A stretch of 64,000 bases of DNA, taken from assembly GCF_001677475.2 (NCBI RefSeq), contig NZ_CP015229.1; one strand, 5' to 3'. How positions within the stretch are numbered: position 1 is the stretch's first letter; each line of letters begins with the position of its first letter. The position numbers and the translations under genes were made by a program. A model generated the notes under the pieces. The model had not been told where the DNA came from. It saw only the letters and a program-made list of their open reading frames with translations, and searched no databases. Shown one piece after another: positions 17,985 to 63,133 of the stretch. Source of the DNA: Escherichia coli. GTDB lineage: Bacteria; Pseudomonadota; Gammaproteobacteria; Enterobacterales; Enterobacteriaceae.

Positions 17985-19730
17985 ATGGCTGGACGAATCC
18001 CACGCGTATTCATTAATGATCTGCTGGCACGCACCGACATCGTCGATCTGATCGATGCCCGTGTGAAGCTGAAAAAGCAGGGCAAGAATTTCCACGCGTG
18101 TTGTCCATTCCACAACGAGAAAACCCCATCATTCACCGTTAACGGTGAGAAACAGTTTTACCACTGCTTTGGATGTGGCGCGCACGGCAACGCGATCGAC
18201 TTCCTGATGAACTACGACAAGCTTGAGTTCGTCGAAACGGTCGAAGAGCTGGCAGCAATGCACAATCTTGAAGTGCCATTTGAAGCAGGTAGCGGCCCCA
18301 GCCAGATCGAGCGCCATCAGCGGCAAACGCTTTATCAGTTGATGGACGGTCTGAATACGTTTTACCAACAATCTTTACAGCAACCTGTTGCCACGTCTGC
18401 GCGCCAGTATCTGGAAAAACGCGGATTAAGCCACGAGGTTATCGCCCGCTTTGCGATTGGTTTTGCCCCCCCTGGCTGGGACAACGTCCTGAAGCGGTTT
18501 GGCGGCAATCCAGAAAATCGCCAGTCATTGATTGATGCGGGCATGTTGGTCACTAACGATCAGGGGCGCAGTTACGACCGTTTCCGCGAGCGGGTGATGT
18601 TCCCCATTCGCGATAAACGCGGTCGGGTGATTGGTTTTGGCGGGCGTGTGCTGGGCAACGATACCCCCAAATACCTGAACTCGCCGGAAACAGACATTTT
18701 CCATAAAGGCCGCCAGCTTTACGGTCTTTATGAAGCGCAGCAGGATAACGCTGAACCCAATCGTCTGCTTGTGGTCGAAGGCTATATGGACGTGGTGGCG
18801 CTGGCGCAATACGGCATTAATTACGCCGTTGCGTCGTTAGGTACGTCAACCACCGCCGATCACATACAACTGTTGTTCCGCGCGACCAACAATGTCATTT
18901 GCTGTTATGACGGCGACCGTGCAGGCCGCGATGCCGCCTGGCGAGCGCTGGAAACGGCGCTGCCTTACATGACAGACGGTCGTCAGCTACGTTTTATGTT
19001 TTTGCCTGATGGCGAAGACCCTGACACGCTGGTACGAAAAGAAGGTAAAGAAGCGTTTGAAGCGCGGATGGAGCAGGCGATGCCACTCTCCGCATTTCTG
19101 TTTAACAGTCTGATGCCGCAAGTTGATCTGAGTACCCCTGACGGGCGCGCACGTTTAAGTACGCTGGCACTGCCATTGATATCGCAAGTGCCGGGCGAAA
19201 CGCTGCGAATATATCTTCGTCAGGAATTAGGCAACAAATTAGGCATACTTGATGACAGCCAGCTTGAACGATTAATGCCAAAAGCGGCAGAGAGCGGCGT
19301 TTCTCGCCCTGTTCCGCAGCTAAAACGCACGACCATGCGTATACTTATAGGGTTGCTGGTGCAAAATCCAGAATTAGCGACGTTGGTCCCGCCGCTTGAG
19401 AATCTGGATGAAAATAAGCTCCCTGGACTTGGCTTATTCAGAGAACTGGTCAACACTTGTCTCTCCCAGCCAGGTCTGACCACCGGGCAACTTTTAGAGC
19501 ACTATCGTGGTACAAATAATGCTGCCACCCTTGAAAAACTGTCGATGTGGGACGATATAGCAGATAAGAATATTGCTGAGCAAACCTTCACCGACTCACT
19601 CAACCATATGTTTGATTCGCTGCTTGAACTGCGCCAGGAAGAGTTAATCGCTCGTGAGCGCACGCATGGTTTAAGCAACGAAGAACGCCTGGAGCTCTGG
19701 ACATTAAACCAGGAGCTGGCGAAAAAGTGA
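17985..19730 (+). CDS. dnaG: DNA primase
   Basis: 581-aa ORF with zinc-ribbon (CPFHNEKTPSF...CFGCG), TOPRIM region and C-terminal DnaB-interaction domain. Confidence 0.95.
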   Translation: MAGRIPRVFINDLLARTDIVDLIDARVKLKKQGKNFHACCPFHNEKTPSFTVNGEKQFYHCFGCGAHGNAIDFLMNYDKLEFVETVEELAAMHNLEVPFEAGSGPSQIERHQRQTLYQLMDGLNTFYQQSLQQPVATSARQYLEKRGLSHEVIARFAIGFAPPGWDNVLKRFGGNPENRQSLIDAGMLVTNDQGRSYDRFRERVMFPIRDKRGRVIGFGGRVLGNDTPKYLNSPETDIFHKGRQLYGLYEAQQDNAEPNRLLVVEGYMDVVALAQYGINYAVASLGTSTTADHIQLLFRATNNVICCYDGDRAGRDAAWRALETALPYMTDGRQLRFMFLPDGEDPDTLVRKEGKEAFEARMEQAMPLSAFLFNSLMPQVDLSTPDGRARLSTLALPLISQVPGETLRIYLRQELGNKLGILDDSQLERLMPKAAESGVSRPVPQLKRTTMRILIGLLVQNPELATLVPPLENLDENKLPGLGLFRELVNTCLSQPGLTTGQLLEHYRGTNNAATLEKLSMWDDIADKNIAEQTFTDSLNHMFDSLLELRQEELIARERTHGLSNEERLELWTLNQELAKK

Positions 19731-19924
19731 TTTAACGGCTTAAGTGCCGAAGAGCGATCGGGAAGCCCCCGACAGCCGCACTGAGAGGCAGCGGCAAATA
19801 TATAAGTACGCCCTCGTAATTATCGTTGGCGGTAAACAACCGTTGGATTTCAGCGTTAACGGCTGAAGGACATCGGGTCAATCGCCCAACACCAACCTCA
19901 TGAAATAAGTGTGGATACCGTCTT

Positions 19925-21766
<1,842 letters not shown>

Positions 21767-21844
21767 TCGGTAGGCCGGATCAGGTGTTACGCCGCACCCG
21801 GCACTAGTCCCTCCGCACAAACGCTACCTTTTCGGTGGCGTTTT

Positions 21845-22351
21845 TTATCGCCCACGCACTACCAGCGCCTGGTCCAGCTCGCGATACGCTTCAACCAGTT
21901 TCTCCAGTGAAACGCGACTTAAACCGCTGGGATTTGGCAGCACCCAAATCTGCGTCGAACCAATGGTGAGCGTTTGTTTCCCCCACTGTGCACCGCGCTG
22001 GCTGAATCCCTGTTCATATGCTTGTTTGCCCAGAATCGCCAACGCCTGCGGCTGATAATCTTCAATTTTTTCAATCAGCTTACGCCCGCCTGCGTGTAGT
22101 TCTTGCTTTGAAACTTCATTGGCTTGCACCGTTGGACGGTCTACCAGTTTGGTGACGCCACAACGATAATCCAGCAGATGCTGTGCCTCCTGCGGCTTCA
22201 ACTGACGGTCGGTAAACCCGGCCTGATATATCACCTTCCAGAAGCGATTTGCCGGATGAGCAAAGGGAAAACCAGTCCCGGCGGATGAAAGCCCAGGGTT
22301 GATACCGCAAAACACGACCCGTAACCCTGGAGCCAAAATATCCTCAACCAT
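21845..22351 (-). CDS. mug: G/U mismatch-specific uracil DNA glycosylase
   Basis: 168-aa [23 protein letters not shown]... Confidence 0.9.
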
Positions 22352-22475
22352 ATTTACTCCTTTCTAACATCACCAGGAAAAGTATAACGAATTGAAAATA
22401 CATTGTTTATAAAAACAGCAGGCGCGCGGTAATGGCTGGATTGCGACACGGAGTTACTTTATAATCCGCTACCAT

Positions 22476-22551
22476 GGCCCCTTAGCTCAGTGGTTAGAGC
22501 AGGCGACTCATAATCGCTTGGTCGCTGGTTCAAGTCCAGCAGGGGCCACCA
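22476..22551 (+). tRNA. ileX: tRNA-Ile (anticodon CAU, lysidine-modified)
   Basis: 76-nt sequence ggccccttagctcagtggttagagcaggcgactCATaatcgc...gggccacca folds as a canonical cloverleaf with CAT anticodon and encoded CCA; its 3' 46 nt are repeated at 36093-36141. Confidence 0.92.
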
Positions 22552-22554
22552 GAT
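22506..22554 (+). repeat. attL core (3' part of ileX plus 3 nt)
   Basis: Exact 49-bp identity with 36093-36141, read directly from the sequence. Confidence 0.85.
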
Positions 22555-22593
22555 TTCAATGAATTACAGATGTATCCAAACTATCTTGCTTTA

Positions 22594-22627
22594 CCAGGAT
22601 ACTTATAGGATACCTCTGAGAAGTATT
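22594..22627 (+). promoter_or_regulatory. Arm-type repeat near attL (AGGATAC motifs; candidate integrase/accessory-factor binding site)
   Basis: ccaggatacttataggatacctctgagaagtatt closely matches 35964-35997 near attR (29 of 34 positions). Confidence 0.45.
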
Positions 22628-22765
22628 AACAAGTAAGAATTGGCTCATGCCTACAGAACAGTTGGGTCGTAGCAGCCGTTCACCTGCGAACAAGAAAGTG
22701 CTACGGGTCTGAACTTTTGCCCCCAACTCTCCAAGAGACCGGCAAAAACCCTGACGGAGGTATCA

Positions 22766-22909
22766 ATGGATACTTTAAGAAAGGGCTCAGACCTGCTGTC
22801 TGCACGTGTGATTGCCGTTACAGGTTTAATCGCAGCACTTGGCAATTTAGGTCTATGCCCAATAGCCGTAGTGCTAGTATGTATAGCTTTAGTTATCATG
22901 CTGAAGTAA
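22766..22909 (+). CDS. 47-aa small hydrophobic membrane peptide (MDTLRKGSDLLSARVIAVTGLIAALGNLGLCPIAVVLVCIALVIMLK)
   Basis: Strong SD (ggagg) 6 nt upstream of ATG; followed by hairpin gcccagctttcgctgggc; a single predicted TM helix. Too short to be in the ORF track. Confidence 0.5.
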   Translation: MDTLRKGSDLLSARVIAVTGLIAALGNLGLCPIAVVLVCIALVIMLK

Positions 22910-23356
22910 TGACAGCGTAACAAGCTCGGCCCAGCTTTCGCTGGGCCTCCCATTTCTACCTCCCAAAATCTATTAGAAACAATAAGCCACTAAAGAAAGA
23001 GCTTTTGCTGGCTACAATACTCACATACAAACAATTTTTATTTTTCGCGGGCGTAAAAAAACGATGGGGCTGGCAGTCCGGAAGACGTCAGGGTACAGAG
23101 ATTTGTACCCGCCTCTCCCTGTGCATGAGCACAATAAGTAACCGAAGGCGGAATTCCGCCCTCGGTACTCACATATGAGAAACGATATTTCTTCCACCGA
23201 TACCCTTTATTTGGGTATCGCGAGTAAGCCCCAAAATCTGGGTGTTACTCTTACTACCCAAACTACGGGTAGTTTCCGTAGTTTCATGGTCGAGTTGCAG
23301 ATCTGCAACTCACCCACCAGCCAACGCAATTTTGCGTTATCGGGAATATCAGCAAG

Positions 23357-23641
23357 TTACCGCCGCAGTCGTTCCGGCTTCTTCCACTGGTAAGTATTTT
23401 TCGCGCTCTCCCTCCGTTGTTGAGAACGGCGACGGTATGCCAGCAACTCAAGGACTCTGATCCGTATGTCGCGCATATCCACGCCGTTAAGCTCGATACC
23501 GTCACGGCGCATCATCTCTGCCACCACACGCGCGTAATTTTCGGCTATCACGCTGTCCGGCTGCGTGGCCTCCTATTTGCTTGATGGTTGTTTGATTCCG
23601 GTAACGCGGCGGATTAATCCCAGCAATTCAGATTCTGTCAT
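23357..23641 (-). pseudogene. Amber-interrupted ORF downstream of terS (remnant of a packaging-module gene)
   Basis: MTESELLGLIRRVTGIKQPSSK, then in-frame TAG, then the 64-aa ORF 23357..23551 in the same frame; start overlaps terS stop. Confidence 0.35.
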
Positions 23642-23652
23642 AGTGCGCTACG

Positions 23653-23973
23653 TTACTTGTCTTTATTCGGCTGCAACTTATCCGGCACATTTCCGGTAGT
23701 TTCCATCAGGTAATCAGCCAGTATCTGTGGGAGGTTGTCGGCAACTCTGGCACTGGCATTACAGGCTTTAACCACTTCCCTTTTAAGCCCATCCAGCATA
23801 GCGGGGGTAATGTGTGGGAAGCTCCTTTGCATAGTAAGCGGGAGGCTGTCCATGATTGATGAAATCTGACTCGCCAGTTTTGAAAGCGCGTACATGCAAA
23901 ACTCTGTATCAATCACGTCACCGCGATCGCGCTCGTTTTTAAGTTCCTGCGCCTCCGCCTGTGCTGTCAGTAA
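23653..23973 (-). pseudogene. Small terminase subunit (lambda Nu1-like), C-terminal fragment separated from its N-terminus by the IS insertion
   Basis: Translation ...AQAEAQELKNERDRGDVIDTEFCMYALSKLASQISSIMDSLPLTMQRSFP... parallels lambda Nu1 C-terminal region (...AQADAQELKNARD...ETAFCTFVLSRIAGEIASILDGLPLSVQRRFP...) from memory. Confidence 0.7.
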
Positions 23974-24085
23974 TCTGATCCTGACTCGTAAGTATGAGAC
24001 GACAATAACTCAGTCCGCCTGGCGCCGATTATTCTGGCCGGTTTTGTAACCTGAGTGTCATTTACATGATCCAACAGGAAATGGC

Positions 24086-25465
24086 GTGACGCTCAATACT
24101 TCTCAGGTCAGTTACTATATGACTCAGCGTAAGAAAGGTATAACTCAGCATATCTCGGCCATGAAGGCTGGTATCTCAGTCCGTTCTGGTCGTCGGATCG
24201 AAAAAGGAGAGTGGGCAAAAAACAGTGTTCGGCACTGGCGCACACGCAAAGATCCTCTGGAAGCTGTGTGGGACAGCATGCTTGTTCCTCTGTTGAAAGA
24301 GAGGCCGGCTCTGACACCAACAACTCTACTGGAGATGCTACAGGATAAATATCCCGGCCAGTACCCCAACAGCCTTCGAAGAACAATGCAACGGCGGGTT
24401 CGCGAATGGAAACTACAGTATGGTACAGAGCAGGAGGTCATGTTCCGCCAGCAACATCAGCCCGGCCTGCGAGGCCTGTCGGACTTTACTGAACTGAAAG
24501 GTGTAGTTGTCACCATCGCCGGTAAGTTGTTGGCGCATAAGTTGTATCACTTCCGTCTGGAATGGAGCCACTGGAGCTGGATGCGGGTTGTTCTGGGTGG
24601 TGAGAGCTTCTCTGCTCTGGCTGAAGGCCTGCAGGAAGCCCTCGGACAACTGGGCGGAGTGCCGGTAGAACATAAAACGGACAGCCTGAGGGCAGCATGG
24701 AAACAACAGGGCGAAGATGGACGCCGCGAGCTGACTGAGCGTTATGCTACTCTCTGTCAGCACTACGGAATGCAGGGCGTACACAATAATGCCGGTCGGG
24801 GCCACGAAAATGGCTCGGTTGAAAGTGCCCACGGACATCTGAAAAGGCGTATCTGTCAGGCGCTGATACTGCGGGGCAGTAACGACTTCAGCACCATAGA
24901 AGAATATCAGGCCTTCATCACTCAGCAGGTTATGCGGCACAACCGTAACAATCAGGATCTGGTCAAGGAAGAACGTCTTCATCTGAAACCGCTGCCGCTT
25001 CGTCGCAGTGCTGACTATGATGAGCTGACTGTGAGGGTTAGTCGCAGCAGTACCATCAATGTGAAGCACGTCGTCTACAGCGTACCTTCCCGGCTTGTAG
25101 GTCAACTGTTACGGGTCAGGTTATGGGACGATCGTCTGAGCTGTTACGTTGGCAGCAGCGAGGTCATGAGCTGCCCTCGCGTCAGACCAGAAAAAGGGAA
25201 GACGCGGGCCCGTCGTATCGACTTCCGACATGTGATCGACAGTCTGGCAAAAAAGCCCGGTGCGTTCTGCCATGCAACGCTGAGAAATGACATCCTGCCG
25301 GACGATGAATGGCGGAGGCTGTGGCGTCGCTTATGTAATCATCTGGAGCCCGATATGGCAGGAAGGCTGATGGTACATGCCGGGAAACGTGGATCTGCAC
25401 CGGCTGATGCGCTTCCTGGGTATAAAAGAAAAGGCGTTGCCGGTAGTCAATGTGATACAGCATAA
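24086..25465 (+). CDS. istA: IS21-family transposase IstA
   Basis: 459-aa ORF (GTG start) with N-terminal HTH and DDE-type catalytic region; sits immediately upstream of an IstB-like gene. Confidence 0.8.
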   Translation: MTLNTSQVSYYMTQRKKGITQHISAMKAGISVRSGRRIEKGEWAKNSVRHWRTRKDPLEAVWDSMLVPLLKERPALTPTTLLEMLQDKYPGQYPNSLRRTMQRRVREWKLQYGTEQEVMFRQQHQPGLRGLSDFTELKGVVVTIAGKLLAHKLYHFRLEWSHWSWMRVVLGGESFSALAEGLQEALGQLGGVPVEHKTDSLRAAWKQQGEDGRRELTERYATLCQHYGMQGVHNNAGRGHENGSVESAHGHLKRRICQALILRGSNDFSTIEEYQAFITQQVMRHNRNNQDLVKEERLHLKPLPLRRSADYDELTVRVSRSSTINVKHVVYSVPSRLVGQLLRVRLWDDRLSCYVGSSEVMSCPRVRPEKGKTRARRIDFRHVIDSLAKKPGAFCHATLRNDILPDDEWRRLWRRLCNHLEPDMAGRLMVHAGKRGSAPADALPGYKRKGVAGSQCDTA

Positions 25466-28951: not shown

Positions 28952-29028
28952 GCCCGATAAGACCCTCTGACCTTATCGGGCTTTTTTTGGGGCATAAAAA
29001 AGCCGGACTTCTCCGGCTTCTGTTACTC
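28952..29028. terminator. Pair of intrinsic terminator hairpins between the SSB gene and the capsid operon
   Basis: gcccgataag...cttatcgggc followed by T-run; and gccggacttctccggc flanked by A-run / T-run (functional on minus strand). Confidence 0.55.
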
Positions 29029-29033
29029 GTTGC

Positions 29034-29456
29034 TTAAAACGGTATGTTATCCCCGTACGGATCATCGTTACCCGCCTGTTGTTTTGCCCTGTTCAGTGCG
29101 TCAGTAGCCTGCCCTTGCTGGCCTTTTTTGCCGCCCGGTCGCGCCGTTCTCGCACTGATTACGCTGTCTGCGATAACCTGCCAGCCCTGCCGCGTTTCGC
29201 CGTTCTGGCCTGTCCACTGGCTTACCTGCATGTTACCCGCCACGCTCACCAGTTCGCCTTTGTGGTGTTTTGCCAGTGCGTCGGCCTGTCTGCCAAACGC
29301 CAGGACGGATAACCACATCGTCGCCGTTCCGTCATCTGCCTGGCTGCACGGAAGGGGGACCGCCATACTAGCCATCGTCATTTGTGTACCCTTGCTGGTG
29401 GTCTTTAACTGCGGGTCAGCCACCAGCCGCCCGTAAGCCGCTATCTGTGCTGTCAT
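29034..29456 (-). CDS. Single-stranded DNA-binding protein (island-encoded SSB)
   Basis: 140-aa ORF; Gly/Gln-rich linker and acidic C-terminal tip ...DDPYGDNIPF resembling the SSB C-terminal DDDIPF motif. Confidence 0.75.
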   Translation of the reverse strand: MTAQIAAYGRLVADPQLKTTSKGTQMTMASMAVPLPCSQADDGTATMWLSVLAFGRQADALAKHHKGELVSVAGNMQVSQWTGQNGETRQGWQVIADSVISARTARPGGKKGQQGQATDALNRAKQQAGNDDPYGDNIPF

Positions 29457-29698
29457 GCTGTCTGCTCTCCGGTTTTAACGTTGATGGTTGTCACCTGTTC
29501 CGCTTCGGCAATCTCCCGTTCTGTCAGCGTGGCAAAGTTTGCAGCTGCCGTTGTCATGAATGCGCTAATCAGTTCGGGATGTGCTTTCGCATATCCTTCC
29601 CCGGCGTTGCGGTCGATGATTTTTATCGACACCCTTAACCAGTGTTCCGTCAAATCAAGGGCGTGCGATTGTGATTTTTTTGTGTGCTTCGCTGTCAT
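29453..29698 (-). CDS. Hypothetical protein (81 aa), coupled to ssb by ATGA overlap
   Basis: ORF directly downstream of the iteron array; no recognised domain. Confidence 0.5.
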   Translation of the reverse strand: MTAKHTKKSQSHALDLTEHWLRVSIKIIDRNAGEGYAKAHPELISAFMTTAAANFATLTEREIAEAEQVTTINVKTGEQTA

Positions 29699-29742
29699 AG
29701 GCTTTATCTCACAGCAGTAAATTAAAATTTTTGCGTTTTAAC

Positions 29743-29971
29743 CCTTCACCTGTTCACCTTTTGATATTTTCCATTTAAATTCATACTGTTAAGGGGTGAA
29801 CAGTTTCACAAAAACTATTCACCAACTGTTCACCACTGTTCACCCTTGAAGCTCAATAAACAACCAAAAAGGTGAACAGTGAATAGTTTGGTGAATAGTT
29901 CATAAATAACTGTTCACCCTATAATATACTGATATAAAAGATATTTATGACAGGGTGAACAGTGGTGAACA
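29743..29971. repeat. Iteron array (P4 ori/crr-type TGTTCACC octamers)
   Basis: Perfect TGTTCACC at 29751, 29827, 29837, 29911 and its complement GGTGAACA at 29795, 29871, 29954, 29964, plus degenerate copies (tattcacc, ggtgaata), within ~230 bp immediately 3' of the primase gene. Confidence 0.8.
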
Positions 29972-29985
29972 GTTATTCCATAAGT

Positions 29986-31803
29986 TTAATTTTTGCTATC
30001 GTCATTAGTGACTGATACACATGATGGCATCCAGTCTTCTGATTCCTCCGTCAGTGTCACGTTTGAACGTAAACCGTGCTTCGTTTTCCGTTTTATATAC
30101 TCCCTGCCATATTCCGCCATTGCCCCAGGCATATCTTTACCGAAGCGCGTCAGTGTTACAGGTTTACCAAACCCATGAGCCCTCATATAAGCCAGATAGG
30201 CATGATAGAGATACCTGCGCGGGCTGAATGGCACAATTTCAGCATTACCCACTAACAGGCCATCACACATTACCGACGCCATGAGATAGCCGCAGAAGTC
30301 CACCAGCGAATCCCCCTCTCGCTTTATCGCCAGTGCTTCTTCAGATTTCTGCTGCTCATATAACAGGCGTCTGGCTTCGTCCTGGTCAGCAAACCTTGTA
30401 AGCAGATGGCGAATCACTACCGCCAGCTCACCTTCTATTTTTTCCGCCAGCATCGGATCGCGTTCGTTCTCCGGTACAACTTCCGAAAAATTGAATATCA
30501 CCCGACGACGTGAGATCCCCCCGCTGCGGTCACTGAATGACATGGCGTTATTGTTAACCGCCAGCACTACTGCCGGAATACGCGTTGAGTAGGGGGCTTT
30601 GTGTTTCGGGTCAATTGCCACCTTGTCACCGCCTGTAATGGCCTTAATTCCTGCCCCATCACCAGCGTAGCGGGTCATATCCGGCATGATAATCAGCGAA
30701 AAGCCAACCACTAACGCGCGTTCCCTTGCATCTTCCAGCGCCTTCATGCTTGCCGATACTGTGTTGGCCTTACCCGCCAGCATGGTGCAAATCTCCGCCA
30801 TCACGCTTTTACCACTTCCCCCTGGACCTGTTACCTCAATGAATAACTGCCAGTCGTACCGGTTCGCCAGCACCATGAATAATGCAGCCAGTACGCGATC
30901 CGCCTTGCGGTCATTCTCAGCCACCGAACGGCGTAACCACTTCCAGAAATTCGGCGCATGTGTTGCCAGCGTTTCCCCCTCTGCTGGTGGGCTGAAAGGT
31001 AATTCACTGGCAATTAACAACCAGTCGTTTTTGTTATGCTCCCGAAAATTACCTGTTCTGGTATCAAATACCCCGTTACTGAATCCAATCAGGTTACGGG
31101 CTGTATTCCCCATTACAGGCAAACTTAACTTCATGGTATCGACCGCCGATTTAATGGCGTTCTGCGAATAGCTGATCTCCGCATCAATGAAAATCTGCGC
31201 CATAGCACGCTGTAACTCTTTATCCTGAACCGGCTCCCATACAACGCCGTTGTAATGGTGAACAGTGTCAGAGTCAGCATGAATCGCCAGTTCACCGCCA
31301 TAATGTGCCAGGAGAACTTCGCCGCGTTGACTTGCTCCCATCTGGTTAAGCGCCAGTGATGAAGCGTTATCGTCTTTTACCCGCTCTTTTTTCTTTACAG
31401 GCAGTTCAACTACCTTTTTCTTTTCCGCCAGCTCTGCCCGTTCACGTTCCAGATATTCGCGCCAGTTCTCCCGTTTCTGGCTGTGCATTCCTTCAGGATA
31501 ATAATCAGCATCCCTGACACCTGCCGCTGCCAGTTTCTGCCCGATGGTATTAACAAGCCCCGGACGCAATAACCCCGCCTGGTAGAGACGCACACGATAG
31601 CGTCCGTCCGGTACGATTTGCAGGTTGTCCAGTTCGGCAAGTTGTTGCTCTCCAAGCCAGACAGGAGGCACGTTATCGCCAGCCAGTCGCCCGTCCTGTT
31701 CCTGCCACTGCTTCGCATGTGCCCACGCATCACTACCCGCAAAAATGATGACTTCCGTCATTTTGTCACGTGGCTGGTGTTTTAAATTTGGCGCTTTTTT
31801 CAT
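29986..31803 (-). CDS. Satellite replication protein (P4 alpha-like primase-helicase, D5-type NTPase)
   Basis: 605-aa ORF (likely start MKKAP with ATGA overlap to upstream gene); Walker A GPGGSGKS; adjacent to TGTTCACC iterons. Confidence 0.75.
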   Translation of the reverse strand: MKKAPNLKHQPRDKMTEVIIFAGSDAWAHAKQWQEQDGRLAGDNVPPVWLGEQQLAELDNLQIVPDGRYRVRLYQAGLLRPGLVNTIGQKLAAAGVRDADYYPEGMHSQKRENWREYLERERAELAEKKKVVELPVKKKERVKDDNASSLALNQMGASQRGEVLLAHYGGELAIHADSDTVHHYNGVVWEPVQDKELQRAMAQIFIDAEISYSQNAIKSAVDTMKLSLPVMGNTARNLIGFSNGVFDTRTGNFREHNKNDWLLIASELPFSPPAEGETLATHAPNFWKWLRRSVAENDRKADRVLAALFMVLANRYDWQLFIEVTGPGGSGKSVMAEICTMLAGKANTVSASMKALEDARERALVVGFSLIIMPDMTRYAGDGAGIKAITGGDKVAIDPKHKAPYSTRIPAVVLAVNNNAMSFSDRSGGISRRRVIFNFSEVVPENERDPMLAEKIEGELAVVIRHLLTRFADQDEARRLLYEQQKSEEALAIKREGDSLVDFCGYLMASVMCDGLLVGNAEIVPFSPRRYLYHAYLAYMRAHGFGKPVTLTRFGKDMPGAMAEYGREYIKRKTKHGLRSNVTLTEESEDWMPSCVSVTNDDSKN

Positions 31804-32099
31804 TTCTGCTCTCTCCACGCGGCAATCATGTTTTTCAGTTCCTGTAGTTTTTTATCAACATCCATACATGACACATGGTTATTTCTGGAAGGCGGGATTT
31901 CCCGCCGGAATCTGCAAATAAAGATCTCCACGTTCAGCGAGCTATGAAATGAATAGCCATCACGAATAAAATACACACGGTCAAACATTATCGATTTTAC
32001 TGTTACTCTGTTGCCGTTCTTATCCCGATAAATAGCGCCGGGGATAATTTTGGGATGTGCATAACCGCTGGCAGTCAAGCCAGATAAATACGTTCTCAT
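31800..32099 (-). CDS. Hypothetical protein (99 aa)
   Basis: ORF translationally coupled to the primase gene; no recognised domain. Confidence 0.5.
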   Translation of the reverse strand: MRTYLSGLTASGYAHPKIIPGAIYRDKNGNRVTVKSIMFDRVYFIRDGYSFHSSLNVEIFICRFRREIPPSRNNHVSCMDVDKKLQELKNMIAAWREQK

Positions 32100-32105
32100 G
32101 ATTAT

Positions 32106-32426
32106 TTATCCCCGATTTGAATCAGTATTCGCTTTCTTTATGGCATTTAATGCATCTGTGGCATTTTCAATGGTGCACCGTAACGAAATATCAAAATGTC
32201 CAAGCATTGCCAGTAACAAACCGATATTACCCATATCAATGCGCATGGCCTTTTCGTCATAGTCCTCATTTTCTGACGCATGCCACATCAGGCTACCAAT
32301 TGACGCAACGGCCATTGATATATTGTCAGTCGCCCCATCCGCAGCGGAATAAACCTTTTTAGCAATATCATGCTCACAGTTAAAATGCGGATTAATCAGG
32401 TACTGGTAATTTGACATATCAGGCAT
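32106..32426 (-). CDS. Hypothetical protein (106 aa)
   Basis: ORF upstream of the 99-aa gene; lower GC than flanking island DNA. Confidence 0.5.
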   Translation of the reverse strand: MPDMSNYQYLINPHFNCEHDIAKKVYSAADGATDNISMAVASIGSLMWHASENEDYDEKAMRIDMGNIGLLLAMLGHFDISLRCTIENATDALNAIKKANTDSNRG

Positions 32427-32622
32427 GGCACACCCCCTGACGAATACGGGCGGCGAATACCATCACGCAGCCAGCCGGGGAGTGCTGGCGTGCTTCCTGT
32501 TCGCTGGTGGCCACGATGGTAATCACACGCGGTTTTGCGGCGCTCAGGGCGATAAAACGCCAGGCGAATTTATTCAGGTTGTGCGAATCCCGCCCTTGCG
32601 GGTGTATGGTATGATTTCTCAT
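32419..32622 (-). CDS. Small protein, possibly Icd-like (host cell-division inhibitor family of P4-like elements)
   Basis: 67-aa ORF MRNHTIHPQGRDSHNLNKFAWRFIALSAAKPRVITIVATSEQEARQHSPAGCVMVFAARIRQGVCHA; the family assignment is from memory of similar annotations and is tentative. The 334-aa ORF in the track is an upstream stop-free extension that looks non-coding. Confidence 0.45.
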   Translation of the reverse strand: MRNHTIHPQGRDSHNLNKFAWRFIALSAAKPRVITIVATSEQEARQHSPAGCVMVFAARIRQGVCHA

Positions 32623-32717
32623 AGCTACCTCGATACTCTCGTTATCGTTGGTGGTTAGAAGCCCTGCGAGTGGTAACGACACTTGCGGGGCTTTGTTTTT
32701 TGTTGCACTTACTGTTA

Positions 32718-32763
32718 ATGTACGTACGTAATATTGATGATAATAGGAGTTACGTACGTACAT
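32718..32763. promoter_or_regulatory. Twin palindromic operator (two copies of TACGTACGTA, 30 bp apart) in a divergent promoter region
   Basis: atgtacgtacgtaat at 32718-32732 and gttacgtacgtacat at 32749-32763; second copy overlaps the start codon of the RHH-like gene. Confidence 0.55.
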
Positions 32764-32953
32764 GTCAACATTAAAGCGGGATAAATCACCACGCGGCGAG
32801 GGATGGTCGCCGACATTCCAGATACGAATTAGCAAAGAACTACGCCAGCAAGTAAACGAGGCAGCAACCGCCGATGGCCTAACCCTCGGCAATTGGTTTA
32901 AAGAATTAGCTCGTGCCGAACTAAAGCGACGCGGCATTGAACCTAAAGGCTGA
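32762..32953 (+). CDS. Small DNA-binding protein, probable ribbon-helix-helix fold
   Basis: 63-aa ORF; TFQIRISKELRQQVNEAA... resembles a beta-strand plus helix RHH pattern; two short basic ORFs follow at 32957-33082 and 33138-33317. Confidence 0.5.
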   Translation: MSTLKRDKSPRGEGWSPTFQIRISKELRQQVNEAATADGLTLGNWFKELARAELKRRGIEPKG

Positions 32954-33429
32954 TGTATGACTGAAAAGCAGACCGATAACAAACTTTCTCTACCAGAGAA
33001 TAAACCAGCAGGCTTCTTACCAAGAAAAATCCTTGATGAGATCAAACGCCGCCAGCGGCGCAAGGCCAAAGAGCAGGAGTAACCATCACCAGCGCCGTGG
33101 TGCGGTGAACTGTGGCGCACAGGGTTACAGGTATCTACGATGACTGACAAATCATTAAAGAAATTATCCTCATCCAAGAAAAAACAACGCAAAAATGCGG
33201 TAAACGAACATGAACCGGAGAGATTCGCACCATGTGCGTTTATCCTTGAGAAGTACCTTAAAGAGTATTCTAGGAAAATACGCTCATTGCAGGCATGGCA
33301 GCGAATCGAGCCAGACTGATAGCATTGCCCACCAGCCAACAACCTGGTATTCTGGATATGCTCAAGTTTAGTGTTATGCCACTGGCGGCCCTCTGCGGTC
33401 GCCTTTGTTTTATGTGCCATCACTCCCCC

Positions 33430-33648
33430 TTACACCGTCTGCGTTCTGCGAGTGGATGCAAGATAAGCATCGAGATCAGTGCGCATATACAGCACTTTGC
33501 GCCCCAGCTTATGGAAAGGGATTTTTACCTTGCCAGTACAGGCCCAGTTCGCCAGCGTTTGATTGTTAACGCCAAGGTAGGCAGCAGCTTCAGCACGTGT
33601 AAGGCGGTCAGTTGATAAATCAGATTTCTTTAAATTCATATCTATCAC
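33430..33648 (-). CDS. alpA: AlpA/excisionase-family HTH regulator
   Basis: 72-aa ORF with LTRAEAAAYLGVNNQTLANWACTGKVKIPFHKLGRKVLY (MerR-like HTH_17 pattern). Confidence 0.75.
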   Translation of the reverse strand: MIDMNLKKSDLSTDRLTRAEAAAYLGVNNQTLANWACTGKVKIPFHKLGRKVLYMRTDLDAYLASTRRTQTV

Positions 33649-33709
33649 CGTGTACTTCTAAGTAACAACGGTGATAAATATCAATCAATGGGTATTTTGT
33701 TTTTAGCCC

Positions 33710-33786
33710 AATAGCCAGTTGCTGTGGGGAGGTTACCAGTTATTTAGCCTTAATAGCCAGCTATTAAGATACACTAGCCAGCTATT
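33710..33786. promoter_or_regulatory. Three TAGCCAG-containing operator-like repeats upstream of alpA
   Basis: aatagccagttgc (33710), aatagccagctatt (33752), ctagccagctattg (33773); plus inverted repeat atcaccgtg...cacggtgat at 33651-33682. Confidence 0.45.
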
Positions 33787-34507
33787 GGGGGTGAACAAGT
33801 TCAAACGAAGAATATTTATCAGGTCTTGGTGGTTGTGCTCCTGATTCTTTAATCCATTTATCCAGAGTGTTTTTACTTACTTTCCCATGATAGTAAACAG
33901 AAAGCTCGTTCAATAAACCTGTTTTACTGGCTTTAGGGTACTTTTCCCATGTTAGTTTAATTACGTGCATAACTTCATTGTAATAATGATTTCTTGGTTT
34001 GCGCGCTTTTTCTTTCTGTGATAAGGATAAAGCATCTTTTATTTTTTTATCTTTTTCATGGTTCGATATAATTTCTTCAAAAAAGTCATTAAGCAATAAC
34101 TCAACACCAACCCTAGTAAGTTTGTCTGCGTGATTACGCATTCCGACATGGTACAATGCAACTGCTGAATTTAAAGTATCGACAACCTGACAAGATAGTT
34201 TACTATCAAATATTAAAAAACCACATGAATCCATTCTTATAGCTAATTCAATAGGATATTGCTCGATTTCTCTTAATTCTAAACCATAACACAAAAGAAA
34301 TTCTCTTGTTGGATACTTTGATTTATAAAAATAATCTCTTATATCATCAATCAAGCGTTTTATAGCCTCTATGGTGGAGTTTTTCGGGGATAAAGATACA
34401 GGAACGTTTAAAACTGAAGAGTCTCGCCCACCAGTAATTAAATCATTCATAACCGAATAAATAATATATTGTTTGACCGATATATTGTTATCACCCATAT
34501 ATGTCAT
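33782..34507 (-). CDS. AT-rich orphan protein (241 aa) in the integrase-proximal cargo position
   Basis: Long ORF with visibly lower GC than the rest of the island; overlaps the int stop; no motif I can recognise. Confidence 0.6.
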   Translation of the reverse strand: MTYMGDNNISVKQYIIYSVMNDLITGGRDSSVLNVPVSLSPKNSTIEAIKRLIDDIRDYFYKSKYPTREFLLCYGLELREIEQYPIELAIRMDSCGFLIFDSKLSCQVVDTLNSAVALYHVGMRNHADKLTRVGVELLLNDFFEEIISNHEKDKKIKDALSLSQKEKARKPRNHYYNEVMHVIKLTWEKYPKASKTGLLNELSVYYHGKVSKNTLDKWIKESGAQPPRPDKYSSFELVHPQ

Positions 34508-35912
34508 TCTTTTCTTGTACTATAGCAAATAGTAAACGACGTTTTTCATCATCACTCATGCCCTCCAGTGCGGAAAGTAATTGCGCATCGATAGATTTTT
34601 TACTCTCCACCAGCCCGGCATGTTCCAGAATTGCCCGTTCTATCCGTGATGCTGGCTCCAGCAGTTCATCAGCACCGAAATGTAAATACCCCTGCGTTAC
34701 GTCGGCACTTCGCATAGTGCGGTGATTCATCAGGCGCTTGAGGATGTAATTACCCACGCCCACCAGCTCAGCAACCGTTCCGAACGTCCGGCGTGCGTCG
34801 TGCCACTTAAACGGGACAGGGAAGAGCATTTCATCGTTCGCCTCAGGAATGGTAGCCGCGCTTATCCGGTCTATGATGTGCCGTGTCTCCTGAATCACTC
34901 CCTTCACGCCAGGAAACACCAGCACATCATCAGCAGCTTTGTTTTTTAGCCTGCGAAGAAACATTTTCCGCAACGTATCAGTGATCGGCAGTTCAAGCGG
35001 ATCCCCGTTTTTCGTGGTGTCTATCCAGAAAAAGCGACCGCCCATATTCACGCGATCCCACGTAAGGCCAAAAACTTCTGATTTCCTCAGTCCGGTAAAC
35101 AGTGCCATTTCCACGGCATCACATACCGTAACAGCTATATCATCCCTTTCCTGTTCGCCCTGGTCGCGCACAGCAGCTACAGCAGCAAACCAGCGGGGAA
35201 AATCATGCAGGCGGATACGTTCCGTTTTTCTTACCGTTCCGTGCCACTGGCGCTTGGTGCTCAGTACCAGAGTCGGCGGATCCGGTAAAAGAGTATTACC
35301 CGCATCATCACGGTAATGATCATGCGCAAACCGACACACAGCACGTAGCGCACGCGCCCATAAATCGGCCTGTGCCTTGCTTCCTGTACCAACCCCAGCC
35401 CGTAACGTGGTTTTATCAGCACCGAACCATACAGCCCCATCAGTGATGGCCTTATGCCGTTGTTCCACCCGTTCGCGGGAAATACTGGCGAGGGTATGGG
35501 CCATCCAGTCACCGGAATAATTCTGTAATATGCTGCGGTACTGTTTTTCTGTGGAGGGTTTCAGGCGGTGGCCACGATTTTTTACGTAGGCGTCAATCGC
35601 CTCACTCAGCGTTATCATGGCCTTGTTGTTAGTGCGCTTTGCTATGTTCGGATTTATCCCCGTTGTGGCGACTTCGCCAAGGAGTTCCATAGCTTTAGCC
35701 CTGGCATTATCCACGCTCAGATCAGGAAAACGCCCCAGCGTTGCACGAATAAATTTTCCGTTACGCTTACGGGAAATGCAGAAACTTTTCACACCAGACG
35801 AACCTACACGGACACGCAGCCCGTTAACCTCCGTATCACCATATTCGACCTGTCCATGTTCCGGCGTTGGCAGTTCTGCAATTTTTACTTTAGAGAATCT
35901 GAATAATTTCAC
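34491..35912 (-). CDS. int: Tyrosine site-specific integrase
   Basis: 473-aa ORF from a GTG start; catalytic signature region (LRKSE..., WHDARRTFGT, ...QGYLHF) with an N-terminal arm-binding-like domain. Confidence 0.85.
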   Translation of the reverse strand: MKLFRFSKVKIAELPTPEHGQVEYGDTEVNGLRVRVGSSGVKSFCISRKRNGKFIRATLGRFPDLSVDNARAKAMELLGEVATTGINPNIAKRTNNKAMITLSEAIDAYVKNRGHRLKPSTEKQYRSILQNYSGDWMAHTLASISRERVEQRHKAITDGAVWFGADKTTLRAGVGTGSKAQADLWARALRAVCRFAHDHYRDDAGNTLLPDPPTLVLSTKRQWHGTVRKTERIRLHDFPRWFAAVAAVRDQGEQERDDIAVTVCDAVEMALFTGLRKSEVFGLTWDRVNMGGRFFWIDTTKNGDPLELPITDTLRKMFLRRLKNKAADDVLVFPGVKGVIQETRHIIDRISAATIPEANDEMLFPVPFKWHDARRTFGTVAELVGVGNYILKRLMNHRTMRSADVTQGYLHFGADELLEPASRIERAILEHAGLVESKKSIDAQLLSALEGMSDDEKRRLLFAIVQEKNDIYG

Positions 35913-35935
35913 TCATACACCCCACCAAGCGATCT

Positions 35936-35997
35936 GGTATCCTGGAAAATCGCTTGTTCTGCTCCAGGATACCTATAGGATACCGTAAAGAAGTATT
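35936..35997 (+). promoter_or_regulatory. Arm-type repeats near attR, directly upstream of the integrase start
   Basis: ggtatcctgg / ccaggatacc inverted pair plus tandem GGATACC copies and the block shared with 22594-22627. Confidence 0.45.
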
Positions 35998-36092
35998 TTG
36001 GGGTATATACAGGTATTTATACAGTAGTTTTAAAAAATGCTAAGGTATTGAAAAGTATCGCTAAGTATCTGTAAGTAAAGGGTTATCAACCA

Positions 36093-36141
36093 ACTCATAA
36101 TCGCTTGGTCGCTGGTTCAAGTCCAGCAGGGGCCACCAGAT
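36093..36141 (+). repeat. attR core (displaced partial copy of tRNA-Ile 3' end)
   Basis: 49-bp exact copy of 22506-22554; upstream sequence is not tRNA-like, so this is not a functional tRNA. Confidence 0.85.
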
Positions 36142-36191
36142 ATAGCAAAGGCTGACGAGAAATCGTCAGCCTTTTTCTTTTTATATATCAG

Positions 36192-36956
36192 TTACTTTGC
36201 GTGCCAGTAAGCCGCTGCACGTACCCGCTGTGGATCATACTGTTCCGCTTCAAAGCGGCGGCTTAAATTCTTAACGACTTTGCCTTCGCCGGTTATCCAG
36301 ATGAAGTAATCATCGGCAGGGATTTGCATCTGCGCCAGACGCGCATCTACTGCCTGCTCATCATGTGCCAGCCATTCGATATTAAAACCATCAAGGTGCG
36401 CGAGATAATCCTGACAGGCGTTATCCCGCACGCTAACCAGCGCACTAACTTGCGGTTTAACGGCAAGTTTGCTCAACGTTTCCAGGCGGCGGCGCAGTGC
36501 GGGCATTCCGGATTCATCGCAGACATACAGCTGATACGCGTAATCTTCCGGCACCACCAGCGAACCGCGGGGACCTGCCACCGTGAGTTTATCGCCCGGT
36601 TGCGCCTGCATTGCCCAGCTGCTGGCGACGCCACCTTCGTGAATAAAGAAATCAATCGCCAGTACATGGCGTAGTTCGTCATACAGCGGTGTATAGTCAC
36701 GCGACGGTGGGCGTGGTCCTTCCGGCCAGACGATGCCCTCTTCCGTTACTGTTGGCGGCACAAAGTGAGCATCAGATTGAGGAAAGAAGAGTTTGCTGTG
36801 ATCGTCAAAGCCGCGCGATGTAAAACCGTCCAGCGCCTCGCCGCCAAAGACAATGCGCTGAAAACCGGCGCTAATACGCTCAACGCGTAGCACAGTCAGT
36901 TCACGGAAGCGCAGATCATTGCGAACGCGCTGCGGGTAGCGGGGGGAGTTATTCAT
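36192..36956 (-). CDS. yqjH: NADPH-dependent ferric-siderophore reductase (siderophore-interacting protein)
   Basis: 254-aa ORF, FAD-binding/ViuB-like; divergent from yqjI. Confidence 0.88.
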   Translation of the reverse strand: MNNSPRYPQRVRNDLRFRELTVLRVERISAGFQRIVFGGEALDGFTSRGFDDHSKLFFPQSDAHFVPPTVTEEGIVWPEGPRPPSRDYTPLYDELRHVLAIDFFIHEGGVASSWAMQAQPGDKLTVAGPRGSLVVPEDYAYQLYVCDESGMPALRRRLETLSKLAVKPQVSALVSVRDNACQDYLAHLDGFNIEWLAHDEQAVDARLAQMQIPADDYFIWITGEGKVVKNLSRRFEAEQYDPQRVRAAAYWHAK

Positions 36957-37232
36957 TGTTATCGCCTTCGTGATAGTAATAAGATATATCTAAATAAATT
37001 TCGTAAATGATAATGATTGTTAATCATGATAAATGCAAGCGATTTGTAGAACTGATACATCTGAGGTATGAGAAGACATTCAACGTCGTAGAAAGGCTGG
37101 CGGATGCGGCGTGAACGTATTATCCGGCCTGGATGTGAGGTGCATTCACGTTTAAAAATCATTTTTATACTTGCAAGAGCGCTCATGTCAGATATAAATT
37201 AGATATATCTAATTAAGCAAAAGGAGGCTGAT

Positions 37233-62581: not shown

Positions 62582-63133
62582 TTAACCCCTTTCGTCTACG
62601 GCGGAAGGGGTTTTCTCCACTTTAAACGGATCAATTCCCCTTTTCTGCATCCGCCAGAAACGAATGATATTCAGGCCATTCATTAGCAGAAAACTGCCCT
62701 CAATCATCGTGCCGCCAATCGACCCCGCCCAGAAGTTGTGAATCACCCAGCAACACGTTGAAAACCACATCACGCAGCGCATGGTCAGCCCTTTACAGCG
62801 GAACAGCGCCCAGGTACTGACAATCGTGCCAATAACCGGCAATAGTTCAACAGGATGATGGAACTTCGCCAGGCCGATTCCGCCAGTCAGCACAATAAAT
62901 ATCGCCATTACCCATAAGCTGCGCGTGCGTAAGGTAATCAACGTACGAATAGCATTAAGGATGGCACTGGCACCGGCAGGATAAGTGCCCAGGAGGAAAA
63001 AATGCACGCCAATAACGGCGCTATAGACCGAAAGCTGCTTTTTGAAGCGACGTTCGTCACGGTTAAAAAATGTAGTGATACCAATCAGAAAGGCGATGAC
63101 ACCCACGCCCTGGGCCAGCCAATACGCGGTCAT
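62582..63133 (-). CDS. ygjV: Inner-membrane protein YgjV
   Basis: 183-aa hydrophobic ORF. Confidence 0.85.
   Translation of the reverse strand: MTAYWLAQGVGVIAFLIGITTFFNRDERRFKKQLSVYSAVIGVHFFLLGTYPAGASAILNAIRTLITLRTRSLWVMAIFIVLTGGIGLAKFHHPVELLPVIGTIVSTWALFRCKGLTMRCVMWFSTCCWVIHNFWAGSIGGTMIEGSFLLMNGLNIIRFWRMQKRGIDPFKVEKTPSAVDERG
62583..62615. terminator. Bidirectional intrinsic terminator between sstT and ygjV
   Basis: aaccccttt-cgtctacggcgg-aaggggtt hairpin flanked by T/A runs. Confidence 0.55.

Follow-up and report, generated by a model that had tools for sequence, protein, structure and literature searches.

Which protein acts on the repeated sequences that lie in front of an alpA-like gene in a phage satellite of Escherichia coli? 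The window analyzed here is a 64,000-nucleotide stretch of contig NZ_CP015229.1 (RefSeq assembly GCF_001677475.2) and, judging from its gene content, it holds a Gram-negative phage-inducible chromosomal island (PICI) resembling EcCICFT073, the reference island of this type. An uncharacterized open reading frame (ORF) of 241 aa is located between the integrase gene (int) and the alpA-like gene, and the 142-nt spacer that separates this ORF from the alpA-like gene (both on the minus strand) contains repeats that a first-pass annotation had named as candidate binding sites for an island repressor or for AlpA autoregulation. We propose that these repeats are the operator array of the 241-aa ORF, the cassette's own regulator, through which a putative alpA promoter (PalpA) would be controlled. 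We assign this reading a probability of roughly 0.5. The positions of all features are listed in Table 1.

The first-pass annotation reported three TAGCCAG repeats spaced about 20-40 bp apart. These are real (plus-strand positions 33712, 33754 and 33775, with start-to-start spacings of 42 and 21), and the heptamer is found 15 times in the 64-kb window compared to an expectation of 5.3 +/- 2.3, with three copies falling within 70 bp. The description was nonetheless incomplete, as there are four sites rather than three: a weaker one (GTTACCAGTTAT, 33733-33744) fills the 42-bp gap between TAGCCAG copies. The four CYRG cores (33715-18, 33736-39, 33757-60 and 33778-81) show exact 21-bp phasing and lie on one face of the DNA. 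The sites are 18-bp palindromes with the consensus CCARTARCYRGYTAYTGG (derived from 15 related loci). Site 2 is contained in a perfect 20-bp palindrome (CTTAATAGCCAGCTATTAAG, 33749-33768), while site 1 includes the TAG stop codon of the upstream ORF.

Viral contigs were scanned with the AlpA-like protein and 54 loci were recovered. All but four distant ones carry int, an ORF of 205-297 aa, a spacer and an alpA-like gene in this order, the ORF-alpA spacer being approximately 141 nt in most loci and 58-150 nt overall. When the motif was compared in homologous islands, as the first-pass annotation had proposed, site positions were found to be fixed across approximately 40 related islands. In 15 distinct loci (class A), whose spacers are only about 62% identical to that of the window, all four cores, including that of the weak site 3, are at identical positions. 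Across 11 ungapped class A relatives, likewise about 62% identical to the window over 152 nt, the information content is 1.59 bits per column in the 10-bp site cores compared to 1.03 in the stretches between sites, and it is 1.84 and 1.95 bits per column in the arms of an inverted repeat next to the alpA start. This conservation and phasing rule out chance repeats, and the suggestion that the repeats are regulatory binding sites is borne out to the extent that they are dyad-symmetric, helically phased and fixed in position. Strong matches to the class A position weight matrix (PWM) are confined to the array, both in the island itself and, for class A relatives, in the 3 kb on either side of alpA, and a PWM scan of the island and its relatives found no further operators. 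A separate 19.2-bit match (CCAATAACCGGCAATAGT, 62829-62846) is located far outside the island in apparently coding sequence and is probably due to chance, because it is isolated. The notion that the repeats are recombination-directionality or integrase arm-type sites takes its appeal from the relationship of AlpA-like proteins to excisionases, which bind site arrays, but it is extremely improbable given that the sites are palindromic, that roughly 2.2 kb separates them from the int-proximal end of the island and that no PWM match of 8 bits or more occurs near the attachment region.

The site sequences fall into at least six specificity classes, among which the positions are fixed while the sequences differ. 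The motifs are TAGCYRGCTA in class A (21-bp phasing), AAATCYRGTTTA and AACCAGATAT in class B (20-bp phasing), CATAGCGCGTTATG in class D (21-bp phasing), CATAGCCTGGCTATG in class E (22-bp phasing), GCATAACnGnTATGC in class F (20-bp phasing) and AACCAGTTA in class G (about 20-bp phasing). In six motif classes the promoter-proximal palindrome is centred at -77 to -78. There is a one-to-one correspondence between motif class and the third helix of the ORF's C-terminal domain: this helix is GKVSKNTLDKWI in class A (core SKNTLDKW), VPVAGTVEKWL in class B (core VAGTVEKW), GRVDEGTVDSWI in class C (core DEGTVDSW), GKVSEETLARWI in class D (core SEETLARW), GVSVDRLDAWF in class E (core SVDRLDAW) and GVSEDSLRRWA in class F (core SEDSLRRW). 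A distant relative that was found independently, P0100, has both a class D-like helix and class D-like sites.

The two candidates named in the first-pass annotation fit this pattern poorly. If the four sites served AlpA autoregulation, AlpA would activate or limit its own promoter through them. The AlpA proteins of EcCICFT073 (PMC6092414) and EcCIMP1 (PMC11773190) do positively autoregulate, the first 26 alpA codons belong to the segment that is swapped together with the sites (described below) and a CCAG/CTGG core is common to many motif classes. However, loci L039 (class A) and L040 (class B, AACCAGATAT) have different motifs although their AlpA proteins differ by only one residue in the 40-aa DNA-binding region (residues 12-52), a residue that also varies within class A. 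Furthermore, classes C, E and F share the AlpA helix GVNPQTLANWAHTGKVKIPFHKVGRKVIY but have three different motifs, the CCAG core is missing from classes D and F, and the protein of the window and EcCICFT073 AlpA represent different alleles (7/15 BLASTP identities only; the former matches HTH_17, not Phage_AlpA). AlpA is thus an improbable reader of the sites. The other candidate, the ribbon-helix-helix (RHH)-like product of the YlcI/YnfO-like gene, would be an Arc/HicB-like island repressor; its gene is convergent with alpA and just downstream of it, and the protein has weak similarity to Arc-like repressors and HicB. This gene comes in three sequence types, and these are reshuffled independently of the cassette that controls alpA. 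The type containing 'IRFED..GPG.FSSWVK' is found beside four motif classes, A (L009, whose sites are identical to those of the window), C, D and E, and, conversely, different types are found beside the same motif, with the window's own type also occurring with class C. Binding of the repeats by this protein is very improbable.

Comparison of closely related islands indicates which sequences travel together. Alignment of the window with island L003 gives 95.4% and 95.8% identity on the two sides of a segment (34523..33562) that is itself unalignable. By this comparison, the ORF, the sites and the first 26 alpA codons have been exchanged as one cassette between islands that are otherwise approximately 95% identical. 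Strain KC-Dl-1 matches the window exactly in the sites, alpA and the ORF C-terminus and departs from it in the ORF N-terminus and in int. From these comparisons and the alignment of the ORFs, the exchange unit is the C-terminal domain plus the sites, and the N-terminal domain is an independent module. The breakpoints bear on the possibility that the sites are read by a transcription factor of the helper phage or the host, in which case the classes would reflect different helpers and the ORF would co-vary by linkage. There is precedent for such an arrangement, as the late promoters of satellite P4 are activated by the Ogr protein of its helper P2 via an upstream dyad, and the sites described here likewise precede a weak putative promoter. 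In EcCICFT073, transcription of alpA is induced by helper phages, and as of 2018 the phage factor responsible had not been identified (Fillol-Salom et al., PMC6092414). Nevertheless, a helper or host factor is an unlikely reader for three reasons. First, recombination breakpoints fall inside the ORF, at the junction of its N- and C-terminal domains, and not between the ORF and the sites. Second, the C-terminus and the sites stay together as a unit in all loci seen. Third, the variable residues fall in the predicted recognition helix.

Table 1. Features of the alpA control region and flanking genes in the window (site centres and promoter positions are given relative to the alpA-like ATG)
Feature	Position	Strand	Remarks
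Operator site 1 (distal)	33771..33788	-	centre -140.5; PWM 18.5 bits; position and CYRG core kept in 15 class A loci
Operator site 2	33750..33767	-	centre -119.5; PWM 16.3 bits
Operator site 3 (weak, AAATAACTGGTAACC)	33729..33746	-	centre -98.5; PWM 8.2 bits; missed by the first-pass annotation
Operator site 4 (promoter-proximal)	33708..33725	-	centre -77.5; PWM 19.4 bits
Uncharacterized ORF, 241 aa	33782..34507	-	238 aa from 34498 in RefSeq; start overlaps int end; proposed binder of the sites
Exchangeable regulatory cassette	33562..34523	-	ORF, four sites, putative promoter, hairpin and first ~26 alpA codons; from the L003 comparison
Weak -35-like CTAAAA	33701-33706	-	18 nt upstream of GATATT
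-10-like hexamer GATATT	33677..33682	-	-43 to -38; predicted PalpA
Leader hairpin 5' arm UAUCACCGU (mRNA sense)	33668..33676	-	stem extends to 33682
Leader hairpin 3' arm ACGGUGAUA	33643..33651	-	Shine-Dalgarno GGUGA at 33645-33649; stem reaches into AUG
alpA-like gene, 69 aa	33430..33639	-	HTH_17/excisionase-type winged helix; Pfam HTH_17 1.2e-11, TIGR01764 8.9e-10
Tyrosine integrase gene (int)	34491..35912	-	Pfam Arm-DNA-bind_3 and Phage_integrase; co-directional with the 241-aa ORF and overlapping its start
YlcI/YnfO-like gene	32762-32953	+	RHH-like

The 241-aa ORF is not covered by any family in Pfam, NCBIfam or PHROGs. A word-indexed homologue search returned only 13 relatives, without informative names, and a profile search of the PDB returned only the SAP domain of Ku70 with a non-significant E-value (0.88). 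A confident AlphaFold2 model of the ORF (pLDDT 85.7) is all-helical and ends in a three-helix bundle. Related ORFs have unrelated N-terminal halves and a common, conserved C-terminal domain of approximately 83 aa that resembles a helix-turn-helix (HTH) domain (encoded at 33785-34033 in the window), with the consensus KPRN..Y.EV..I..TWEKYP.ASKT.L..L..HY.GKVS..TL..WI..SG..PPKP.KY..FELV.P. A profile of this domain matched 164 representative clusters (50% identity) among 1.84 billion proteins, nearly all of them 190-280 aa in length and carrying it at their very C-terminal end. Two further matches of the profile are a protein that passes the Pfam HTH_32 threshold and contains the unit in four tandem copies, and a protein composed of 12 HTH_23 repeats. 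Based on the model and these matches, a DNA-binding role for the ORF C-terminus is plausible. In protein P0114 (484 aa), an N-terminal region that has restriction-endonuclease-like and RAP-like matches is fused to four tandem copies of the HTH unit; because of these tandem copies, the unit seems to be an autonomous DNA-binding module that is reused elsewhere. In the literature searched, we found no published description of this ORF family, regulator or operators, nor of any protein regulator encoded between int and alpA.

The inverted repeat next to the alpA start was also reported in the first-pass annotation, where it was taken for a protein binding site. It exists, but its second arm had been given as cacggtgat, which is one base off (the plus strand reads aacggtgat). 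The arms, TATCACCGT (33643-33651) and ACGGTGATA (33668-33676), are separated by a 16-nt loop and can be extended to 18 nt at 89% complementarity. In the mRNA sense they would form a hairpin of 14-18 bp (-23.3 kcal/mol, z -6.5 compared to shuffled sequences) in which the alpA Shine-Dalgarno sequence and AUG are paired with upstream sequence, while a transcript starting after the 5' arm is predicted to be essentially unstructured (-3.4 kcal/mol only). The hairpin is kept in every class with differing arm sequences: the pairs are UAUCACC/GGUGAUA, UAGCUCC/GGAGCUA and UUCACCAUC/GAUGGUGA, with AAUGCACC/GGUGCAUU in a distant relative. In the distant locus L062, the hairpin over the Shine-Dalgarno sequence persists with new arms (AATGCACC/GGTGCATT). 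When 27 distinct leaders were aligned, 82% of cells were paired compared to 34-46% when the partners were slid, 36 cells were double changes and 0/500 shuffles reached the observed values. The evidence that the sense strand is the one that folds is moderate. Based on these compensatory changes, the inverted repeat is more likely a leader-RNA hairpin that sequesters the alpA Shine-Dalgarno sequence than a protein site.

The same inverted repeat could be a DNA operator, for example a lambdoid CI/Cro-like one. Its half-site, TATCACCG, is identical to the consensus half-site of the lambda operator, and preservation of a palindrome by compensatory changes is also expected of a site bound by a dimeric protein. 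Lambda is, in addition, a helper of EcCICFT073 (PMC6092414). However, the half-sites are 25 bp apart from centre to centre, rather than 9 bp as in the 17-bp lambda operator, and the arms change to UAGCUCC/GGAGCUA or AAUGCACC/GGUGCAUU while always covering the Shine-Dalgarno sequence. There are also 27 G.U cells compared to 16 A.C cells, the sense strand folds better in 21/27 leaders and in locus L021 the register of the stem shifts with the Shine-Dalgarno region still paired. A DNA operator is accordingly an improbable account of the repeat, and a lambda-type CI/Cro operator in particular was rejected because of this 25-bp distance and because the two halves change in concert to unrelated sequences. 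A search of Rfam 15, which includes C4/IsrK-type immunity RNAs, gave nothing relevant at E <= 1 in 29000-37000.

A generic sigma-70 scan of 33300-34100 found no promoter, and the candidate for PalpA instead comes from a scan for position conservation across classes. The -10-like hexamer is the only promoter-like element conserved in position (-43/-42) in classes A, B, C, E, F and G; its variants are GATATT, TAAAGT, TATAGT and TAGATT, and the accompanying -35 is poor. GATATT is invariant within class A and directly abuts the 5' arm of the hairpin. Transcription is predicted to start near 33668-33671, about 7 nt downstream of the hexamer, which places the start at the end of the 5' arm. The conserved hexamer next to the arm also suggests, by analogy to IS10, that the hairpin provides fold-back insulation of alpA against read-through from int. 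Such read-through is possible in the window: int and the ORF overlap and are co-directional with alpA (the overlap is also kept in loci L003, L061 and L062), no terminator was predicted between the ORF and alpA when the minus strand of 33300-34100 was scanned, and int is a likely source of transcription towards alpA.

Taken together, these features could form the following control circuit. Dimers of the 241-aa ORF product would bind the four operators through the C-terminal homeodomain-like or winged HTH domain, with the variable N-terminal helical domain serving as the input module that senses the helper phage, and the array would set the level of transcription from the weak PalpA. In the mRNA the hairpin would bury the Shine-Dalgarno sequence and AUG. 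The full hairpin would be present only in read-through transcripts from int and the ORF, and these would be translationally silent, while PalpA transcripts would be open, since their predicted start is at the 3' end of the 5' arm. The operators are centred near -47, -68, -89 and -110 relative to this predicted start. As all sites are upstream of a poor -35 and the proximal one abuts it, the geometry leans slightly towards ligand-dependent activation, and a role of the array in repression, anti-activation or roadblocking is nearly as likely.

Several observations weigh against the operator array of the 241-aa ORF and the putative PalpA as described above. The co-variation of the sites and the ORF C-terminus could result from physical linkage alone; site 1 overlaps the ORF stop codon. 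The sites could also be read by a factor of the helper phage or the host. In place of four clear sites, class C relatives have a different, G/C-rich dyad, and L062 has a terminator-like palindrome (GGGGGGATCACAGTACACTGTGATCCC followed by a T-run) in place of the array (2104-2203 of that locus). PalpA matches the consensus weakly (5-8 bits) and ranks below the top four promoter candidates in the window itself, and GATATT may be conserved as part of the extended stem and not as a -10 element. The ratio of G.U to A.C in the stem core is only 27:16, and a palindrome acting at the DNA level is thus possible.

The assignment of the island to the Gram-negative PICIs follows from its organization. The gene order is int, the 241-aa ORF, the alpA-like gene (HTH_17), a YlcI-like gene, an Icd-like gene, DUF4222, a D5-type primase (D5/DUF927), single-stranded DNA-binding protein (SSB), major capsid protein, decoration protein and terS, all within approximately 13 kb. 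The island is small, with int at one end and co-directional alpA-type regulator and primase-helicase genes, its gene set includes no tail or lysis genes, and EcCICFT073 carries an equal gene content. The 69-aa gene occupies the alpA position of EcCICFT073. At E <= 0.01 its product has no match to Pfam Phage_AlpA (PF05930), matching only HTH_17 and HTH_66; it is thus named alpA-like by position and fold class only.

Other elements were observed in and around the island. A 59-aa ORF at 33140-33319 matches phrog_21027, to which no function is assigned there. Just 3' of the primase gene (29760-29990, minus strand) is a dense cluster of (A/C)TGTTCACC / GGTGAACAG copies in direct and inverted orientation, with a long dyad at 29812-29901 among them. 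The copies are probably the iterons of the island replication origin; an Rfam miRNA-family match was dismissed as spurious, being produced by the dyad. At 35940-36140, a fragment resembling the 3' end of a tRNA (TGGTGGCCCCTGCTGGACTTGAACC, minus-strand read) adjoins int, and repeated GGTATCCT / AGGATACC motifs are located immediately 5' of where int begins. Together, these features probably represent the attachment site and arm or promoter elements of int. Beside the island lies another integrase, which has an HTH regulator of its own (approximately 19500-25100 of the window; L001 148-5692); this arrangement suggests tandem islands. ARAGORN predicted a tRNA-Met at 22476-22551, inside a coding sequence that is annotated as hypothetical in the identical strain A36 record.

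The cassette is a candidate for the link through which one subfamily of Gram-negative PICIs may sense its helper phages. It is possible, although we hold this tentatively, that the ORF family is the missing helper-phage sensor and master regulator of this subfamily, with swappable N-domains that recognize different helper-phage proteins, C-terminal HTH domains that form exchangeable "immunity-like" cassettes with matching four-operator arrays and so gate alpA, and with a fold-back hairpin that silences read-through. The cassette offers a four-site DNA target and a protein with separable input and DNA-binding domains, its natural specificity variants allow swaps, and it bears both on annotation and on the engineering of PICI-based delivery vehicles.

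Among characterized islands, EcCICFT073 is of the same family and gene order as the island in the window, and its alpA likewise comes first after int and has the same orientation, with the ORF intervening here. As of 2018, the global repressor of Gram-negative PICIs was unclear (Fillol-Salom et al., PMC6092414). EcCICFT073 differs in its AlpA allele and in that no ORF separates int from alpA; instead there is a 365-bp spacer with 10-bp-phased ACAAC direct repeats rather than 21-bp-phased palindromes; no equivalent Shine-Dalgarno hairpin was seen in its int-alpA region. Given the missing ORF and the ACAAC repeats, the regulatory module of the window is of another kind, although the island family is the same, and transfer of the EcCICFT073 promoter data to the window was rejected since the architecture is not shared. 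In EcCICFT073 itself (L059 4188-4252 and 4449-4473), six 10-bp-phased ACAACGnGAA-like repeats are located after int and a related GACACAAC cluster before alpA, which make up a different candidate regulatory or arm-type array.

Staphylococcal PICIs provide a parallel for the regulator. Their repressor Stl is island-encoded beside int, combines DNA binding with a highly variable helper-sensing domain and controls the promoter that launches the island cycle (PMC9927489, PMC9638917). The 241-aa ORF has no sequence or clear fold similarity to Stl, which is divergently encoded, has an N-terminal XRE-like HTH and is a proven repressor; the ORF is co-directional and its HTH-like domain is C-terminal. 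For satellite P4 (for context, see PMC10111431), the late-left promoter PLL upstream of vis is an example of an AlpA/Vis-type gene that is switched on via an upstream dyad. P4 uses the zinc-finger activators Ogr and Delta and a single TGT-N12-ACA dyad, a motif that is not present here, and no C4/CI-type RNA was detected in 29000-37000.

The hairpin recalls the fold-back inhibition of the IS10/Tn10 transposase that Davis, Simons and Kleckner reportedly described in 1985, in which upstream sequence pairs with the ribosome-binding site. The IS10 hairpin forms only in transcripts arriving from outside, as the element's own promoter starts inside the hairpin. Here the internal start is only predicted, from the conserved -10-like hexamer, and the protected gene is a regulator rather than a transposase. 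Finally, the cassette can be compared to the immunity cassettes of lambdoid phages. Its operators are upstream of the predicted promoter and not over it, and the regulator family is unrelated, but in both cases the regulator and its operators are swapped together between near-identical elements, and in both there are several phased dyad operators, which suggests cooperative binding.

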